DNA from: an uncultured Chloroflexia bacterium
GTDB taxonomy: Bacteria; Chloroflexota; Limnocylindria; Limnocylindrales; CSP1-4
Length of the DNA: 64,000 nt
Assembly: GCA_963766685.1 (NCBI GenBank)
Contig: CAVYBJ010000017.1
Location: forward strand, 248,107-312,106
Reading direction: 5' to 3'
The position numbers were made by a program, and so were the translations under genes. Of this stretch, positions 8,750 to 45,462 are shown piece after piece. Each line of letters begins with the position of its first letter. Positions within the stretch are counted from its first letter, which is position 1. A model generated the notes under the pieces. The model saw only the letters and a list, made by a program, of their open reading frames with translations, did no database searches and was not told where the DNA came from.

Positions 8750-9394
8750 CTAGTCCACCCTCCGGATGACCCCTACCAGCTTGCCCTGGATGCGGACCGC
8801 ATCGTAGTACTGGGGCTCATAACGATCGTTGGCGGGCTGGAGGCGGACCCGGTTCCGTTCCTTGAAGAACCGCTTCAGGGTGACGGCATTCTCATCGACC
8901 TGCGCGACCACGATGTCCCCATCCTGCGCCGTTTGCTGCTCGCGGATGACGACCAGGTCTCCGTCCATGATGTGGGCATCGACCATCGAGTCACCACGCA
9001 CGCGCAGGACATACGTCGCCGCGCTCGTGTTGATCATGTCCGGGATCGAGATCGTCTCGCTGGCATCCTGGTAGGCCTCGATCGGACCACCCGCTGCGAT
9101 CTCGCCGACGACCGGGAAGCGATGGTCATCAGACGCGGCCCTCGCCAGCAGGTCGCTCCCGCCATGGCTGAGCAGTGCGGCGGGCGTCAACCGGAGTGCG
9201 CGCGACTGGGTGGCGTCCCGCTCCAGGAGACCCTCCCGCTCCAGGGCCGAGAGATGGTGGTGGACGGCCGACGTGGAGGCCAAGCCGACCGCAGCAGCGA
9301 TCTCGCGGACGGACGGGGGATAGCCGCTGCGGCGCACGCTGGCGGCGATGTACTCGATGATCCGCTGTCTTCGCAACGCGTCGTGCTTGGTCAC
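8750..9394 (-). CDS. lexA: LexA repressor
   Basis: N-terminal winged HTH and a C-terminal S24 peptidase domain (VLRVRGDSMVDAHIMDGDLVVI, Ser/Lys dyad context); 214 aa. Confidence 0.9.
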   Translation of the reverse strand: MTKHDALRRQRIIEYIAASVRRSGYPPSVREIAAAVGLASTSAVHHHLSALEREGLLERDATQSRALRLTPAALLSHGGSDLLARAASDDHRFPVVGEIAAGGPIEAYQDASETISIPDMINTSAATYVLRVRGDSMVDAHIMDGDLVVIREQQTAQDGDIVVAQVDENAVTLKRFFKERNRVRLQPANDRYEPQYYDAVRIQGKLVGVIRRVD

Positions 9395-9418
9395 GAGGCC
9401 TCCTTTGGGCCATCGTAC

Positions 9419-9432
9419 CGAACACTTGTTCG
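9419..9432 (+). promoter_or_regulatory. LexA (SOS) box CGAACACTTGTTCG, Cheo/Gram-positive type
   Basis: Perfect CGAAC-N4-GTTCG palindrome 25 bp upstream of the lexA start, in the divergent lexA/DUF1232 intergenic region. Confidence 0.75.
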
Positions 9433-9539
9433 ATTGTCAAGGGAGGTGGCGGCTCGGCGGGGATGGGAACGGGTCGGCCGCATCGACGTGACGCGCGCTG
9501 GATGCCGTGTGTGGCGCGGGTGCTAGACTCGCGCTCCCG

Positions 9540-10007
9540 ATGGCCCTGCGAACCACCTTCCGGCTGGGGCTGACCGCGCTCAGCTTCTGGCCATTCCTAC
9601 CCCTTCTGCAGCGGACGCCGATCTACGGACGGCTTCTCGTCGAGTTGGCGCTCGACGGCCGGGTACCCTGGTCGCGGAAGGCCATGCTCGGTTTCGCAGG
9701 CGCCTACATCGTGGCCCCCATCGACGTCATCCCGGACTGGATCCCGGTCATCAGCAGGTTCGATGACGTGATGGTCACTATCATCGCCTTGGACCTCTTC
9801 CTGGAGGGGGTCCCGCGTGAGGTGATGATCGAGAAGTTGTACGCGCTCGGCATCGATGGTCGCGAGCTCGAACGGGACATGGAGGCGGCGCGGCGTCTGC
9901 TCCCCATGCCGGTCCGGTCGCTCGCCCGCCGCCTGCCGACCCTTATGGAGACCGGCGCCAGGATCCTGCGCGTGGAGCTGGCAGCGCGCGGCATCGTCGA
10001 GCAGTAG
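9540..10007 (+). CDS. DUF1232 (YkvA-like) membrane protein, divergent from lexA
   Basis: The motif ...YIVAPIDVIPDWIPVISRFDDVMVTIIALDLFL is characteristic of DUF1232. Start taken at MALRTTF. Confidence 0.6.
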   Translation: MALRTTFRLGLTALSFWPFLPLLQRTPIYGRLLVELALDGRVPWSRKAMLGFAGAYIVAPIDVIPDWIPVISRFDDVMVTIIALDLFLEGVPREVMIEKLYALGIDGRELERDMEAARRLLPMPVRSLARRLPTLMETGARILRVELAARGIVEQ

Positions 10008-10032
10008 TGAGACCTAGGAGGCTTCTGAGACC

Positions 10033-10479
10033 GTGAAGGTGATCCTGACAGCGGACGTCGAGTCGGTGGGCAAGAGCGGTGAGCTCAAGGACGTGACCAA
10101 CGGCTACGCCCGCAATTACCTCATCCCGCGCAACCTGGCCGTGCCGGCGTCGGGTGGGACCTTCCGCGCCTGGCAGCACGACATCGCCAGCCGCGAAGAA
10201 CAGCGCAAGCGCGAGCGCGAGGAGGCCGAGATCGCCGCCCAGCGCATCAGCAGCACGACGCTCACGATGGGCGTGAAGGTCGGAGAGGGCGGCAAGCTTT
10301 ACGGGTCCATCACGGCCAAGGACATCGCGGATGCGCTGGCTCGCCGGGGCATCGAGATCGATCGCCATCGCATCGACCTCGAGGAGCCCCTCCGACACCT
10401 CGGGACCTACAAGGTCGCCATCCGTGTCGCACCCGAGATGGTCTCGGAGGTCACCATCGCGGTCGAACCCAAGGGCTAG
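10033..10479 (+). CDS. rplI: 50S ribosomal protein L9
   Basis: MKVILTADVESVGKSGELKDVTNGYARNYLIPRNLAV is the canonical L9 N-terminus; 148 aa. Confidence 0.9.
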   Translation: MKVILTADVESVGKSGELKDVTNGYARNYLIPRNLAVPASGGTFRAWQHDIASREEQRKREREEAEIAAQRISSTTLTMGVKVGEGGKLYGSITAKDIADALARRGIEIDRHRIDLEEPLRHLGTYKVAIRVAPEMVSEVTIAVEPKG

Positions 10480-10522
10480 CCAGACGCGCGGTGGGGCTTG
10501 CCCGCCGCGTCATCATTGCGGC

Positions 10523-11773
10523 GTGAGGCTTGCCACCACGCTGCACGTCGACCTGGACGCCTTCTTCGCGTCCGTCGAGCAGCGGGACCGCCCTGAGCTC
10601 CGCGGTCGACCCGTGGTCGTGGGTGGTGGTGGCCCCACCGACCGTGGCGTCGTCAGCGCCGCATCCTACGAGGCGCGGCGCTTCGGGATCCACTCGGCGA
10701 TGCCGTTGCGCACCGCCGCAGCCCTGTGTCCCACGGTGGTCTTCCTGCCTGTCGATGGCCGCCGGTACGCGGCGGTCAGCCGAGAGGTCATGCGCATCCT
10801 GCAGCGCTTCACGCCGCTGGTGGAGCCCATCTCCATCGACGAGGCCTTTCTGGACGTCGCCGGCTCAGAGCGGCTTCACGGCAGCCCGGTCGATATCGCT
10901 CGCTCGATCAAGGCTGCCATCCGCGACGAGCTGCAACTGACCGCCTCGGTCGGGGTCGCGACCAACAAGCTGGTGGCCAAGGTCGCCTCGGACCTGCAGA
11001 AGCCGGACGGCCTGGTGGTCGTCGAGCCGGGCCACGAGGCCGCATTCCTGGCGCCGCTTCCCGTCGGCCGGCTGTGGGGTGTCGGTGCGCGTACGGCCGA
11101 CGTGCTGGCGGAGTACGGCGTCCGGACCATCGGCGACCTGGCCGCCCTCCCGGACGACCTCCTGGCGCGCCGACTCGGCAAGCAGGGTCCCGTCCTGGCC
11201 GCCCGGGCCAGGGGTATCGACCCGTCCGAGGTCTCCGATGCGGAGGCTGCGCGGTCCATCAGCCACGAACACACCTTCGACATCGACACGTCCGATCGCG
11301 AGGCCCTGGAGCGCACGTTGCTGGCGCTCTGCGACGGCGTCGCAGCACGGCTGCGGGCCGGCCACGTCATGGCGCACACCGTGACCGTCAAGGTGCGCGA
11401 TGCATCCTTCACCACGGCGACCCGCCAGAGGACACTGGCCGCGCCGACCGACGAGACCGAGGTCATCTTCCGTGCTGCCCTCGAATTGGCCCGTCCTCGA
11501 TTCAGGGGTGTCAAGGTGAGGTTGCTGGGCGTGTCGGCTTCCCACCTCGACGCAGGCGAGCAGCTCTCGCTCTTCCGTGCCTCGGACGACCGCCACCGGC
11601 GCGCGACCCAGGCCGCGGACGAGATCCGCCGCCGGTTCGGCTCCAGGGCCATCCAGCGCGCCCGGCTCATCGGATCGGGCGTCCCGGAACCATTCGAGCG
11701 CGACCCGCTGCATCATCCCGACGCCGGCGCTGGCAAGTCTGCACGCTCGCGCGGTCCGAGCTCCGAGCCCTGA
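10523..11773 (+). CDS. dinB: DNA polymerase IV (Y-family translesion polymerase)
   Basis: LHVDLDAFFASVEQRDRPELRGRPVVVGG...SIDEAFLDV and palm/finger/little-finger motifs. A GTG start near 10523 is likely; the track ORF is over-extended at its 5' end. Confidence 0.85.
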   Translation: MRLATTLHVDLDAFFASVEQRDRPELRGRPVVVGGGGPTDRGVVSAASYEARRFGIHSAMPLRTAAALCPTVVFLPVDGRRYAAVSREVMRILQRFTPLVEPISIDEAFLDVAGSERLHGSPVDIARSIKAAIRDELQLTASVGVATNKLVAKVASDLQKPDGLVVVEPGHEAAFLAPLPVGRLWGVGARTADVLAEYGVRTIGDLAALPDDLLARRLGKQGPVLAARARGIDPSEVSDAEAARSISHEHTFDIDTSDREALERTLLALCDGVAARLRAGHVMAHTVTVKVRDASFTTATRQRTLAAPTDETEVIFRAALELARPRFRGVKVRLLGVSASHLDAGEQLSLFRASDDRHRRATQAADEIRRRFGSRAIQRARLIGSGVPEPFERDPLHHPDAGAGKSARSRGPSSEP

Positions 11774-11855
11774 GCCGAGCTCAGGGCGACGCGTGACAGG
11801 CTAGCTGGCACGGCTCATCGGCAGGCTTCGACGATGAGCGGTACGAGTTGACATT

Positions 11856-11869
11856 CGAACACTCGTTCT
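11856..11869 (+). promoter_or_regulatory. LexA-like box CGAACACTCGTTCT
   Basis: GAAC-N4-GTTC core with one mismatch to the lexA box. It lies between dinB and the 93-aa ORF. Confidence 0.55.
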
Positions 11870-11881
11870 GTATCGTGAGAT

Positions 11882-11895
11882 AGAACAGATGTTCG
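11882..11895 (+). promoter_or_regulatory. Second LexA-like box AGAACAGATGTTCG
   Basis: GAAC-N4-GTTC core 26 bp after the first box and about 60 bp upstream of the 11957 ORF. Confidence 0.55.
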
Positions 11896-11956
11896 TTGCA
11901 GCCGATGCGTGCCCCCTCGGCCTCCGCCGCTCGACCCGCATTGAGGAGGCGATGTC

Positions 11957-12238
11957 ATGATCAACTTCGAGGGTCTGTCGCTCGGCACGGCGGTCGCGGT
12001 CGATGGTCGTACCGGACGCCCGCGGGAGATCCGGGCCGGTGGCCAACGGCTGGCCATCACGGCCCTGGAGGCCGTTCGGGACGAGACCTCGGCCTATCCC
12101 GCGGACACCGGGCCGCGAACGGTCTTCGTGGTCCGCTCGGATGCGCGGCGCTATCGACTCGTGCACCTGCTCGGTGAGCGGCGCTGGACGATCGAGGAGT
12201 TGTCGTCTCAGGGCACCGCCGCCACGCGTGCCGCCTGA
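11957..12238 (+). CDS. Uncharacterised 93-aa protein downstream of the twin SOS boxes
   Basis: ATG ORF, MINFEGLSLGTAVAVDGRTGRPREIRAGGQRLAITALEAV.... I recognise no family. Confidence 0.45.
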   Translation: MINFEGLSLGTAVAVDGRTGRPREIRAGGQRLAITALEAVRDETSAYPADTGPRTVFVVRSDARRYRLVHLLGERRWTIEELSSQGTAATRAA

Positions 12239-12377
12239 AGCAGGACCGCGGTCATCGCCAAGCCCATCCTGACGACCGGGACGTCGGTGGCCCCCGGCCA
12301 CCATGCGAGAATGCGCCGCATGACTGAAGAGCGCAGGGGCTTCCGCGGATCAGACCCTCGAGGAGTTCAGCACCGCC

Positions 12378-12983
12378 TTGGCATCCGGGGAGCCGGTTCC
12401 GGGAGGCGGGAGCGCCGCCGCCGTCGCGGGCGCGCTCGCAGCCAGCCTGTGCAGCATGGTCGTCCGCCTCTCGCTCGATCGACCAGCCCTGCAGGCGCAC
12501 GCCAGCCTCCACGTAGAGGGGCTCGCCATCTCGGATGCGGCCCGCTCGCGCTTCCTCGATCTCGCGGATGAGGACGCCGCAGCCTACGCGGCCTATCGTG
12601 CGGCACGCCGCATGCCACACGACACGGACGAGCAGTCGGCGGCTCGCGATGCCGCCACTCGCCAGGCTGCCCTGGTGTCCGCTGAGGTACCCCTCAGAGT
12701 CGTTGATGCCTGCCGCCAGCAGGTGGCGATCGCGGAGCGTCTCGTGGGCCGGACGAACCGAAACGCTGCCAGCGATCTGGATGTGGCGGCTCTGCTGCTG
12801 GATGCGTCCGCGAGAGCTGCCGCCGCCAACGTGCTCGTCAATCTTCCTGCCATCGGTGATGAGGGCCTCGCATCCGGGATGCGCCTCCGCGTGGAGGAAG
12901 ACCTCCAGCAGGTCAGGGAGACAGCCTCCCGCGTCAGGGGTCTGGTCGCGACGGGCGGGCAGCGACCAGTGGAACCCGCATGA
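12378..12983 (+). CDS. Formiminotransferase-cyclodeaminase C-terminal-like (cyclodeaminase / methenyl-THF cyclohydrolase family) protein
   Basis: PVPGGGSAAAVAGALAASLCSMV motif of the FTCD_C family. TTG start; the frame is open from 12313. The stop overlaps the folD ATG (ATGA). Confidence 0.7.
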   Translation: MASGEPVPGGGSAAAVAGALAASLCSMVVRLSLDRPALQAHASLHVEGLAISDAARSRFLDLADEDAAAYAAYRAARRMPHDTDEQSAARDAATRQAALVSAEVPLRVVDACRQQVAIAERLVGRTNRNAASDLDVAALLLDASARAAAANVLVNLPAIGDEGLASGMRLRVEEDLQQVRETASRVRGLVATGGQRPVEPA

Positions 12984-42448: not shown

Positions 42449-43889
42449 TCAGGCGGCATGCCGCAGACTCCCCGCGCGTCCGTCGATGGTGGTGGTCGAG
42501 GCGTGCCGCGGGCCAAGGTAGGTGGCCAGGCCGGCCTCCAGCGGCGTGAGCGTGCGAGGCATGGCTCGAAGCAGGGGTTCGACATCCACGGTCGCCGGCT
42601 GGTTGACGAAGTCCACCCCGTCCGGGCTGAGGGGCGGGTCGGGCAGGAAGCGCATCGGCCAGGCGGCCAGCTTGATGAGGGGCGCCGGCCCAGGGATGAC
42701 GGGCTTGTGGATGCCTGCCACGCTCATGGCTCGGCCGATGACCTCTCGCATGGACATGGTCTCTGGACCGCCGACCTCGAAGACCTGCTCGAGGGCAGCC
42801 TCCTGCTCCAGCGAATCGGCCGCCAGGCGAGCCACGTCCCCGACGTAGACCGGGGCCAGCTGCTGGCGACCCAGGTTCGTGAGCGGGACGAAGGGCAGGG
42901 TCCGCGCGAACCCCAGGAAGCGATTGAGCGAGACGTCGCCAGGGCCGTAGACCCAGGTCGGTCGCAGGATGGTCCAGGCCATCCCGGAGCCGCGCACGGC
43001 GTCCTCCGCGACCGCCTTGGCGCGGAACCAGTGGCGCTGGGCGTCATGACCAGCACCCGCACCCGAGAGGTAGACGACACGGCGCACGCCGGCCTGCCGG
43101 CCGGCCGCGACGAGCTGCTGCCGTGCCGCCGGCATCGACTTCCATGAAGGTGTAGCCCTTCCTGGGCTGCTCGATGGGCAGGCCCGGGAACGCCAGCGAG
43201 ATGACCATCTCATCCACGCCCTCGAGTGCGGCGCGCAGGGCGGCCGGGTTCCGGATGTCGGCAGGTCGCAGCTCGATGTCGTCCGGCAGCTGTCCGCGGG
43301 CGGCCTCGCCCCTCGAGGAGAGGACGACGACGTGGCGTCCGCGACGGCGGAGCTCACGGGCGATCTCGCTGCCCACGAAGCCTGTCCCACCCGCGACGGC
43401 GATGGTGCCTGGGCGCCCACTCGCCGGGTCGCCGGCCGGCTCGAAGATCTGGTCGATGGCGGTGGCGCGAAAGGCGAAGATGTGCTCGAGCTGCGAACGC
43501 ACGACGAGGCGATGGCCGAGCTCGCCGACCGGACCGAACGGCAGTTCGTACTCGACGTGATCGTCCATGCGGACTCCGTCCGTCACGGGCGTGAAGCGAT
43601 GATCGTGGACCCAGGACTTGTATGGGCCCTTGGCCTGCACGTCACGGAAGCGCAGGGGAGCCTCGACCGCGTCGATGTGCGTCTGCCAGTGGGCGGGGAT
43701 GCCGAAGAGCGGTCGCACCGTGTAGTCGATGACGGCCCCGGTCTCCGTCACCGGGTCGGGCGTGTGGATGTCGAAGCCCATCGAGCGGGGGGTGATGCGT
43801 CCGAGGTTACGGGCCCGGGAGAAGAAATCCCAGACTCGGTCCAGGTCTGCCTTCACGATATGACTGCTGTCGAGCGTGTGCTTGGTCAT
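42449..43889 (-). CDS. SRPBCC (cyclase/dehydrase) domain fused to an NAD(P)-binding NmrA/epimerase-like domain; one frame break near 43110
   Basis: N-terminal SRPBCC fold, then a Rossmann segment IAVAGGTGFVGSEIARELRRRGRHVVVLSSR, then a C-terminal NmrA-like part in the second frame. Confidence 0.6.
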
Positions 43890-44028: not shown

Positions 44029-45462
44029 TTGGAGGAGTCGATCGACACCGCCATCGTCTGGTTTCGGCGCGACCTGCGGGTCACCGACCATCCGGCTCTC
44101 AGCACGGCGGCGGCCAGTGCACGATGGGTCATCCCGCTCTTCGTGCTCGACGAGCGGCTCATGACCGGATCGATGGCCGCGCCGGCACGTACGTGGTTCC
44201 TGCTGCGATCGCTGGCGGAGCTCGATGCCTCGCTGCGTGCGCGCGGCAGCGGCCTGCTCGTGCGGAGCGGACGCCCGGAGGATGTCGTGCCGAGGCTGGC
44301 TCACGAGACCGGTGCCTCCACCGTCCTGGCGACCCGAGACGTCACCCCCTTCAGCCACCGACGCGACCAGGCCGTTTCAGCGGCGCTCGAGCGCGACGGC
44401 CGTCGCCTCCGGCTGCAGCCCGGCCTGCTGCTGGCCGAGCCAGAGGCCATGCACACCGCCGCGGGCCGCCCATACAGCGTCTTCACGCCCTTCTGGAAGG
44501 CGCTCCAGCAGGCCTCCCGCCGACGACTGCTCCCAGCCGTCGGGGCCATCCGTACCCCAGCCGATCTCCTGGCTGGATCGCTGGGGGTCACTGCCGCGCT
44601 GGCTGATCGCGAGGCACCGCATCTCGGGTTGCCGGAGCCGGGTGAACCGGCCGCGCAGCAACGCCTCATGGCCTGGGTGCTCGAAGGGCTCCCCGGCTAC
44701 GGTCGCGGCCGGGACGGACTCGATGGCCAGGCCACCTCGCGCCTGGGGCCCGACCTCCACCTCGGCACGCTGTCGCCGCTGCAGGTGGAGCGTGCCGCCC
44801 TGGAGGTGGGGGAGGCGGGCCAGCCGTTCGTGCGGCAGGTCGCCTGGCGCGAGTTCTACCACCACCTGCTCTTCCATCGACGCGCGGCCGTCGACCCCGT
44901 GGCCGACAGCCCCTTCATGGCCATCTTCCGTTCCGAGCGGGAAGACCCCGATGCGGTCGCCGCGTGGCGCGAAGGACGCACGGGCATCCCGGCCGTGGAC
45001 GCCGGGATGCGCCAGCTGGCCACGACCTCGTGGCTGGGCAACCGGGCACGCCTGGTGGTGGCCTCCTTCCTGACCCGTCACCTGCTCATGGACTACCGCA
45101 TCGGCGAGCGTCACTTCATGCGGCACCTCATCGATGGCGATGTCGCGAACAACGCGGGTGGCTGGCAGTGGACCGCGGGCGTGGGCGCGGACCCGCAGCC
45201 CTGGTTCCGTGTCTTCAACCCGGTCCTGCAAGGGCAGCGCTTCGATCCCGACGGTGACTGGGTGCGCCGCTGGGTGCCCGAGCTTGGCCAGGTCCCGGCA
45301 CGTCACGTCCACGCGCCGTGGGAGATGCCCGACCATGCCGCGGCTGCCGTGGGCGTCCGCCTCGGTGAGACCTATCCGAGGCCCATCGTGGACCTGCACG
45401 CGGGTCGCGAGCGCGCCCTGGCAGCCTTCCGCTCGATCTCAGGCGCCCCGGATCGCCCCTGA
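44029..45462 (+). CDS. phr: Deoxyribodipyrimidine photolyase / cryptochrome family protein
   Basis: IVWFRRDLRVTDHPAL N-terminus and a C-terminal FAD-binding domain (..WREFYHH.., ..GWQWTAGVGAD..). Confidence 0.9.
   Translation: MEESIDTAIVWFRRDLRVTDHPALSTAAASARWVIPLFVLDERLMTGSMAAPARTWFLLRSLAELDASLRARGSGLLVRSGRPEDVVPRLAHETGASTVLATRDVTPFSHRRDQAVSAALERDGRRLRLQPGLLLAEPEAMHTAAGRPYSVFTPFWKALQQASRRRLLPAVGAIRTPADLLAGSLGVTAALADREAPHLGLPEPGEPAAQQRLMAWVLEGLPGYGRGRDGLDGQATSRLGPDLHLGTLSPLQVERAALEVGEAGQPFVRQVAWREFYHHLLFHRRAAVDPVADSPFMAIFRSEREDPDAVAAWREGRTGIPAVDAGMRQLATTSWLGNRARLVVASFLTRHLLMDYRIGERHFMRHLIDGDVANNAGGWQWTAGVGADPQPWFRVFNPVLQGQRFDPDGDWVRRWVPELGQVPARHVHAPWEMPDHAAAAVGVRLGETYPRPIVDLHAGRERALAAFRSISGAPDRP

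Follow-up and report, generated by a model that had tools for sequence, protein, structure and literature searches.

The window, i.e., the whole 64-kb stretch of DNA that was analysed here, harbors an island in which lexA, the polymerase gene dinB, and a small gene coding for a protein of 93 amino acids lie close together. The lexA gene (8750–9394, minus strand) encodes a protein of 214 amino acids with LexA_DNA_bind and Peptidase_S24 domains (Pfam E-values of 6e-21 and 8e-32, respectively). Its promoter, TTGACA-17-TACGAT (9412–9440, minus strand), carries within the spacer the perfect LexA box CGAACACTTGTTCG (9419–9432) with a GAAC-N4-GTTC core at 9420–9431, as had been noticed in a first-pass annotation of this DNA. 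A gene for a DUF1232 membrane protein (9507–10007) and rplI (10033–10479), both on the plus strand, are divergent from lexA and co-directional with dinB; they constitute the context of the island and possibly belong to the same transcription unit as dinB. In the window, the single box of lexA sits 76–87 bp upstream of the DUF1232 gene. The dinB gene (10526–11773, plus strand) codes for a Y-family polymerase of 415 amino acids (Pfam IMS, E-value of 1.8e-54). The earlier statement that no box lies directly upstream of dinB is correct, yet dinB sits in the lexA-linked island.

A gap of 183 bp separates the stop codon of dinB (11773) from the 93-aa ORF and contains the core promoter of the small gene (11848–11876, plus strand), which consists of a −35 element TTGACA (11848–11853), a 17-nt spacer, and a −10 element TATCGT (11871–11876) and matches the consensus at 10 of 12 positions. 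The predicted LexA operator 1, CGAACACTCGTTCT (11856–11869, plus strand; core GAACACTCGTTC at 11857–11868), is located inside the promoter spacer. The core of the predicted operator 2, AGAACAGATGTTCG (11882–11895, plus strand; core GAACAGATGTTC at 11883–11894), begins 6 nt past the −10 element and therefore covers the predicted transcription start. The two boxes are 26 bp apart from start to start, and their coordinates, their placement between dinB and the ORF, and the Arg-rich character of the encoded protein (14 Arg among 93 residues) are as had been described. A Shine-Dalgarno sequence, GAGGAGG (11943–11949, plus strand), is found 7 nt before the ATG of the 93-aa gene, which extends from 11957 to 12238 on the plus strand. 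A GC-rich hairpin, GGTGGCC-CCC-GGCCACC (12286–12302, plus strand), is situated 3′ of the gene and is a possible terminator for it; the hairpin has no T-run and was not called by a terminator scan. Another hairpin without T-run, CCCTGAGC-CGA-GCTCAGGG at 11768–11786, overlaps the dinB stop codon and might be a terminator separating dinB from the SOS promoter.

Perfect GAAC-N4-GTTC sites occur four times in the 64-kb window where 0.20 are expected, none of 100 shuffled sequences reached four, and three of the four sites belong to the lexA–dinB–93-aa island. Sites with one mismatch are present at chance level (15 versus 13.1 expected) and only perfect boxes are thus informative. In Bacillus and Mycobacterium, LexA has been documented to recognize a GAAC-N4-GTTC motif (PMC3323433). 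The fourth perfect box of the window, GAACGGCAGTTC (43536–43547), lies inside a coding region (43044–43889, minus strand) and is probably due to chance; a photolyase-like gene (44029–45462) is found about 480 bp away.

For comparison, 72 related loci were considered, 63 from species-representative genomes, nearly all of them Limnocylindria or other Chloroflexota, and nine from metagenome contigs; the organisms are represented by metagenome-assembled genomes. The related loci, 725 kb in all, contain 198 perfect boxes, 136 of which lie upstream of the 93-aa gene, 56 upstream of lexA, and just 6 elsewhere, and this distribution amounts to strong phylogenetic footprinting for LexA control. Every related locus for which upstream DNA is available has two perfect boxes preceding the homologue, at protein identities ranging from 33 to 91%. 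In all 65 non-redundant orthologous promoters the same order of elements is encountered, namely TTGAC, box 1, TAnnnT, and box 2, with both boxes perfect; TTGAC lies 7–11 nt before box 1, TAnnnT begins 1–4 nt past box 1, and box 2 begins 5–17 nt past the −10 element. In these 65 promoters, the first base of each box spacer is a purine and the last one a pyrimidine (GAAC-R-N-N-Y-GTTC), which fits the GAAC-N4-GTTC class recognized by LexA of Bacillus and Mycobacterium (PMC3323433). As the distance from box to box varies between 25 and 38 bp, the boxes appear to be placed relative to the promoter and not to each other, suggesting that they are independent sites positioned by the promoter.

A promoter scan of the region 9300–12500 detects only two σ70-like promoters, one for lexA and one for the 93-aa gene, and in both of them a LexA box fills the spacer between the −35 and −10 elements. 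Judged from their sequence and arrangement, the two boxes upstream of the 93-aa gene look like genuine operators that keep a small, conserved gene under tight SOS control. The tight repression that had been proposed on the basis of the double operator is supported by the 65 promoters and by the like design at lexA. Timing of SOS genes is known to be set by the number, strength, and position of LexA boxes (PMC6590174). According to the sequence layout, the 93-aa gene is a transcription unit of its own with its own promoter. Downstream of it, a gene with an FTCD_C domain is a neighbor whose adjacency is as conserved as that of dinB. A common operon with the folate genes located downstream was considered and rejected, given that a convergent gene intervenes between the 93-aa gene and the folate genes in about half of the loci and that the FTCD_C gene has a promoter-like element of its own. 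This extended −10-like element, TGCGAGAAT, is found in the region 12304–12400, 7 nt upstream of the FTCD_C start codon ATG 12320, recurs in many loci, and suggests a separate promoter and a leaderless mRNA for the FTCD_C gene. In the window, the frame of ATG 12320 does not agree with that of the FTCD_C body (ORF listed from TTG 12378), whereas in the equivalent region of locus L008 (6345–6450) the two frames agree; the window contains an additional base near 12343–12348 (CGCGGATCAG versus CGGGATCAG), reflecting either a frameshift or an assembly error.

The 93-aa ORF is a real gene, as concluded from its homologues, from the codon-position pattern of substitutions, and from its ribosome-binding sites. 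A collection of 5.8 billion sequences contains 186 homologues at E ≤ 1e-3, almost all of them 86–93 amino acids long, and, when clustered, the family comprises at least 186 groups at 90% identity and 69 at the 50% level. In close pairs, changes are found mainly at third codon positions, with synonymous changes exceeding replacements, and all 60 unique upstream regions contain a Shine-Dalgarno-like motif. Conservation of the ORF in related genomes, on which the first-pass annotation had made its proposal depend, is thereby established. A few longer candidate fusions, i.e., P0150 (with a subtilase), P0175, P0168, and P0137, which carry a subtilase or an Arg/Pro-rich run-on in addition to the domain, look like frameshift, chimeric, or gene-calling artefacts, and P0185 was discarded as a relative because its match to a repeat is spurious.

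The encoded protein has a pI of 10.5, equal to the median of the family, and lacks any hydrophobic segment. With a maximum Kyte-Doolittle mean of 0.55 over 19 residues, a transmembrane segment is unlikely, and the protein is predicted to be soluble and basic. The AlphaFold model consists of seven strands and no helix (mean pLDDT 79, core 86–95), the β core spanning residues 11–82. The earlier finding of no recognizable family holds as far as family databases are concerned: searches of Pfam, NCBIfam, and PHROGs with the 93-aa protein and 24–34 members of its family gave no credible match, and matches to TGT_C2 were dismissed, as their E-values of about 0.01 did not reach the threshold. Similarly, a sequence-profile search of the PDB with the 93-aa protein returned only noise (E ≥ 0.4), and a Foldseek search with its model found nothing at E < 0.1, i.e., no fold in PDB or BFVD and no DNA-binding fold.

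These properties bear on the functions that had first been suggested for the gene, a division inhibitor or a toxin. An SOS checkpoint protein or inhibitor of cell division would have to be kept from causing accidental arrest, for which double repression and rapid turnover would be suitable, and the twin operators together with a possible degradation tail do resemble the multi-layer control of such inhibitors. In Gram-positive bacteria, genes for division inhibitors often adjoin lexA, and the known inhibitors YneA, SidA, ChiZ, and DivS are membrane proteins. However, the 93-aa protein has no hydrophobic segment, no match to SulA, LysM, or any other family is found in Pfam, and the gene divergent from lexA is that of the DUF1232 membrane protein and not the 93-aa gene. 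Together with the homology to ImuB-C described below, this makes a role as division inhibitor quite improbable. A membrane protein encoded divergently from lexA, such as the DUF1232 protein, recalls by its position the SOS division inhibitors of Gram-positive bacteria. Still less can be said for an SOS-induced toxin of the SymE type that would be silenced by double repression and proteolysis: a small, basic, all-β protein under tight multi-level control would be compatible with it, but neither a match to a toxin family in Pfam nor an adjacent partner gene is seen, and both the ImuB-C homology and the linkage to dinB point elsewhere, so that we regard a toxin as extremely improbable. On these grounds, neither of the initial suggestions is favored, YneA-like family matches being likewise missing in our searches.

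At the level of profiles, the small protein does have relatives. ImuB-C is a small β-rich domain with a conserved C-terminal Trp and basic residues that is found at the end of ImuB or as a stand-alone protein (PMC3765255); it comprises about 80 residues of mainly β structure (PMC6511836, PMC12926913), and a survey of 2026 describes it as a novel β-barrel without relatives in the PDB (PMC12926913). In a single profile-profile comparison (hhalign), made with one subgroup only, the alignment of the 93-aa family matched that of 21 ImuB-C proteins from Deinococcus with 92.5% probability, an E-value of 4.8e-7, and a score of 40.8 over 71 columns, whereas reversed profiles scored 10.4 and 7.7 and the maximum among 200 column shuffles was 16.3. 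The assertion of a protein without family, which stands for the databases, is therefore not maintained at the profile-profile level, where the link to ImuB-C/DUF6504 appears. Conserved residues of the family and of the Deinococcus proteins are aligned, i.e., P22 with P17, R54 with R49, H70 with H64, and W77 with W73. Among 34 diverse members of the family, W77, R41, and P53 are invariant and R54 nearly so (≥90%), and the Deinococcus partners of R54 and W77, R49 and W73, are likewise invariant in their subgroup. In the AlphaFold models of the 93-aa protein and of the ImuB-C protein from Deinococcus deserti, the positions of the strands match in the hhalign register, and a Foldseek search with the D. 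deserti model also yielded no PDB fold and nothing at E < 0.1. A difference concerns the WRxGGRWW motif, which is central in the Deinococcus subgroup and has VRDExAAYP in its place in the 93-aa family.

The D. deserti protein, Deide_1p01890, is encoded on plasmid 1 between a gene for a Y-family polymerase and dnaE2, downstream of lexA, and is annotated as ‘DUF6504 family protein’ (Pfam PF20114, E-value of 6e-7). A tblastn search of plasmids with DinB revealed no imuB. Neither the window protein nor any of 24 members of the 93-aa family matches DUF6504 (PF20114) at E ≤ 1. Among clear Deinococcus homologues of ImuB-C (P0190–P0267; E below 1e-20 to the D. deserti protein), about one third have no precomputed PF20114 match, and the DUF6504 model is therefore insensitive even for close members. 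A profile search with the Deinococcus ImuB-C alignment recovered only Deinococcus-type proteins among the 120 matches listed. Stand-alone ImuB-C proteins have been reported to occur ‘most frequently’ with DinB and often with LexA (Aravind et al., PMC3765255), and operons of polymerase, ImuB-C, and lexA were confirmed by Timinskas and Venclovas (PMC6511836). The 93-aa family displays the C-terminal Trp, at least two conserved basic residues, an all-β structure without PDB fold, and a Y-family polymerase as neighbor. On balance, we conclude that the 93-aa ORF encodes a divergent stand-alone ImuB-C (DUF6504-like) that is too distant for the Pfam model.

The genomic neighborhood is in line with such an assignment, and the lexA–dinB island is conserved throughout the class Limnocylindria. 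In nearly all of the 72 loci, dinB is located upstream of the 93-aa gene on the same strand, in most of them directly adjacent, and lexA is found within about 1.4–6 kb of the 93-aa gene. Two gene orders exist. In the first one, represented by the window, lexA is divergent from DUF1232–rplI–dinB–93-aa gene; in the second one, rplI–DUF1232 is divergent from lexA–dinB–93-aa gene. In about half of the related loci dinB is situated directly downstream of lexA on the same strand and is probably co-transcribed with it; by its gene arrangement, this second order corresponds to the published lexA–polymerase–ImuB-C cassettes except for its internal SOS promoter. In loci L004–L070, whichever the order, lexA is always divergent from the DUF1232 gene followed by rplI, with a single LexA box between them, and the DUF1232 gene, possibly also rplI and dinB, might share SOS control.

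DinB appears to be catalytically intact as judged by its domain content and is apparently active. Its C-terminus in the window comprises the clamp motif QLSLF, the segment RRATQAADEIRRRFGSRAIQRARLIG, which resembles RecA-NT, and the conserved tail EPFERDP, and across 61 loci the corresponding elements are QLxLF, RRATxAADAIRxRFGxxAIxRARLI, and an EPFE-RDP tail. The RecA N-terminal motif of Y-family polymerases has been described (PMC6511836), and tails like the EPFE-RDP of DinB are proposed docking sites for small subunits. Searches by tblastn with DnaE2 and ImuY queries, covering the window and, in the 72 loci, the DNA up to 6 kb from the gene, came back empty, with no dnaE2-like sequence; imuA is not encoded nearby either. 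Because ImuB-C has been modelled as the main DnaE2-binding element, one might imagine that the 93-aa protein is the partner of a DnaE2-type polymerase whose gene lies elsewhere in the genome, and that a split ImuB-like mutasome results in which DinB acts as Y-family scaffold. However, the tblastn result speaks against a nearby dnaE2, and published modules of an active PolY with ImuB-C usually occur without DnaE2 (PMC6511836); we deem such an arrangement very unlikely.

Of somewhat greater weight, though still unlikely in our view, is a general damage sensor or recruiter that would bind damaged or single-stranded DNA by itself and recruit various repair proteins and not DinB specifically. A sensor role was proposed by Aravind et al., who found ImuB-C also together with Ku/ligase, photolyase-like, and SRAP genes (PMC3765255), and the strongly basic character of the 93-aa protein (pI 10.5) as well as the independent transcription unit of its gene would suit such a role. 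On the other hand, dinB remains the upstream neighbor in nearly all loci despite the rearrangement of the lexA/rplI block, no fold of a DNA-binding type was detected, and the survey of 2026 models ImuB-C as a protein-binding barrel contacting DnaE2 and ImuA (PMC12926913). Since the neighborhood with dinB is encountered in a single class only, it could also be due to inherited gene order and not to functional coupling.

Beyond the last strand, proteins of the family possess a variable tail of about 10 residues (pLDDT below 50), which ends in -RAA in the window protein. The C-terminal -AA is present in 124 of 144 members (86%), and 96% end in AA or VA, compared to a background of 2.8% among long ORFs in the same DNA. 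Deinococcus ImuB-C has no such tail, and the protein stops right after the barrel. The terminal LAA of the ssrA tag is bound directly by ClpX (PMC10659297), and recovery from SOS needs ClpX-dependent degradation, ClpXP clearing LexA fragments and UmuD′ (PMC6590174). By its likeness to an ssrA-type signal, an -AA on a flexible tail points to regulated turnover, and the 93-aa protein may be short-lived through an ssrA-like degradation signal; alternatively, the -AA end could serve for binding a partner. A tmRNA gene is not present in the window.

Taken together, we favor the view, with moderate confidence in the explanation as a whole, that the 93-aa protein is kept under LexA repression and probably serves the adjacent DinB as accessory subunit or recruiter. 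In undamaged cells, LexA dimers would occupy operator 1, blocking the binding of RNA polymerase, and operator 2, covering the start; the operators are laid out in this way in the DNA, and from their layout we infer the binding of LexA. The same two dimers would also halt read-through from dinB, and the 93-aa gene would stay off until LexA is strongly depleted. Stimulation of LexA self-cleavage by RecA is established SOS biology, and upon DNA damage it would open the promoter. The 93-aa protein would then bind to DinB, probably at the tail beyond the RecA-NT-like motif, and/or to RecA or damaged DNA, and, as homology to ImuB-C and synteny suggest, might license or redirect translesion synthesis. 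A ClpXP-type protease would recognize the clade-specific -AA tail as an ssrA-like signal and quickly clear the factor once LexA returns.

This proposal may be compared to systems already known. Stand-alone ImuB-C proteins such as Deide_1p01890 or those of the type of Geobacter GSU0042 share with the 93-aa family a length of ~80–90 amino acids, an all-β structure, an invariant C-terminal Trp, conserved Arg residues, and a link to SOS (PMC3765255, PMC6511836, PMC8072749), and they likewise are encoded beside a Y-family polymerase and lexA and have no PDB relative. In contrast to them, the 93-aa family adds a low-confidence -AA tail and a two-operator promoter of its own in place of a lexA-led operon, and its neighbor is a DinB that is apparently active, dnaE2 being absent from the vicinity. 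[quoted passage not shown] In ImuB the barrel follows a RecA-NT-like motif, whereas here that motif is carried by the neighboring DinB, the 93-aa protein is a separate polypeptide, the polymerase is intact by domain content, and ImuA and DnaE2 are not encoded nearby. UmuD/UmuD′ of Pol V from E. coli and YolD/YqjX from Bacillus offer similar examples of small, LexA-controlled, and proteolytically limited accessory proteins that are encoded beside a Y-family polymerase and delay or license mutagenic synthesis (PMC6590174, PMC6511836). However, no match to Peptidase_S24 or YolD (PF08863) is found at E ≤ 1 in 24 members of the 93-aa family, there is no sign of self-cleavage, and, as reported, the structure of the ImuB-C barrel does not resemble the SH3-like core of UmuD′/YqjX (PMC12926913). 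As to the promoter, lexA, recN, and colicin genes of E. coli likewise have more than one LexA site per promoter, which is tied to tight repression, although the motif there is CTGT-N8-ACAG, while it is GAAC-N4-GTTC here with sites spaced by 25–38 bp.

A more specific version of the preferred reading, which we put forward tentatively and regard as rather doubtful, is that Limnocylindria have come to license an active DinB in two tiers, in parallel to the control of Pol V but with unrelated parts. Expression of the polymerase would go together with lexA or the rplI operon, and its partner would be gated by the two operators and by ClpXP-type removal through the new -AA tail, so that a mutagenic or lesion-specific DinB complex would be formed only in deep, sustained SOS. 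Such a system would be minimal and free of DnaE2.

The profile search of the 93-aa protein that had been recommended at the outset was thus negative with family databases and positive with hhalign against Deinococcus ImuB-C, and the 93-aa gene adds a new, previously unannotated and divergent member to a damage-response module that is already known; it does not represent a system of a new kind. Among the modules of bacterial mutasomes, ImuB-C is the one least understood, and an unannotated family, hosted by an abundant class of soil and freshwater Chloroflexota, the Limnocylindria, is now assigned to its superfamily, of which the Pfam model DUF6504 misses a whole branch. What makes this case unusually clean is that a seemingly active DinB is combined with an ImuB-C transcribed on its own, that neither dnaE2 nor imuA is encoded nearby, that the double LexA operator is invariant, and that the protein has a candidate degradation tail; its main use is as a minimal system for dissecting the function of ImuB-C. 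If the proposed gating is true, these Chloroflexota would provide an independent example of limiting error-prone synthesis through an accessory subunit and not through the polymerase.
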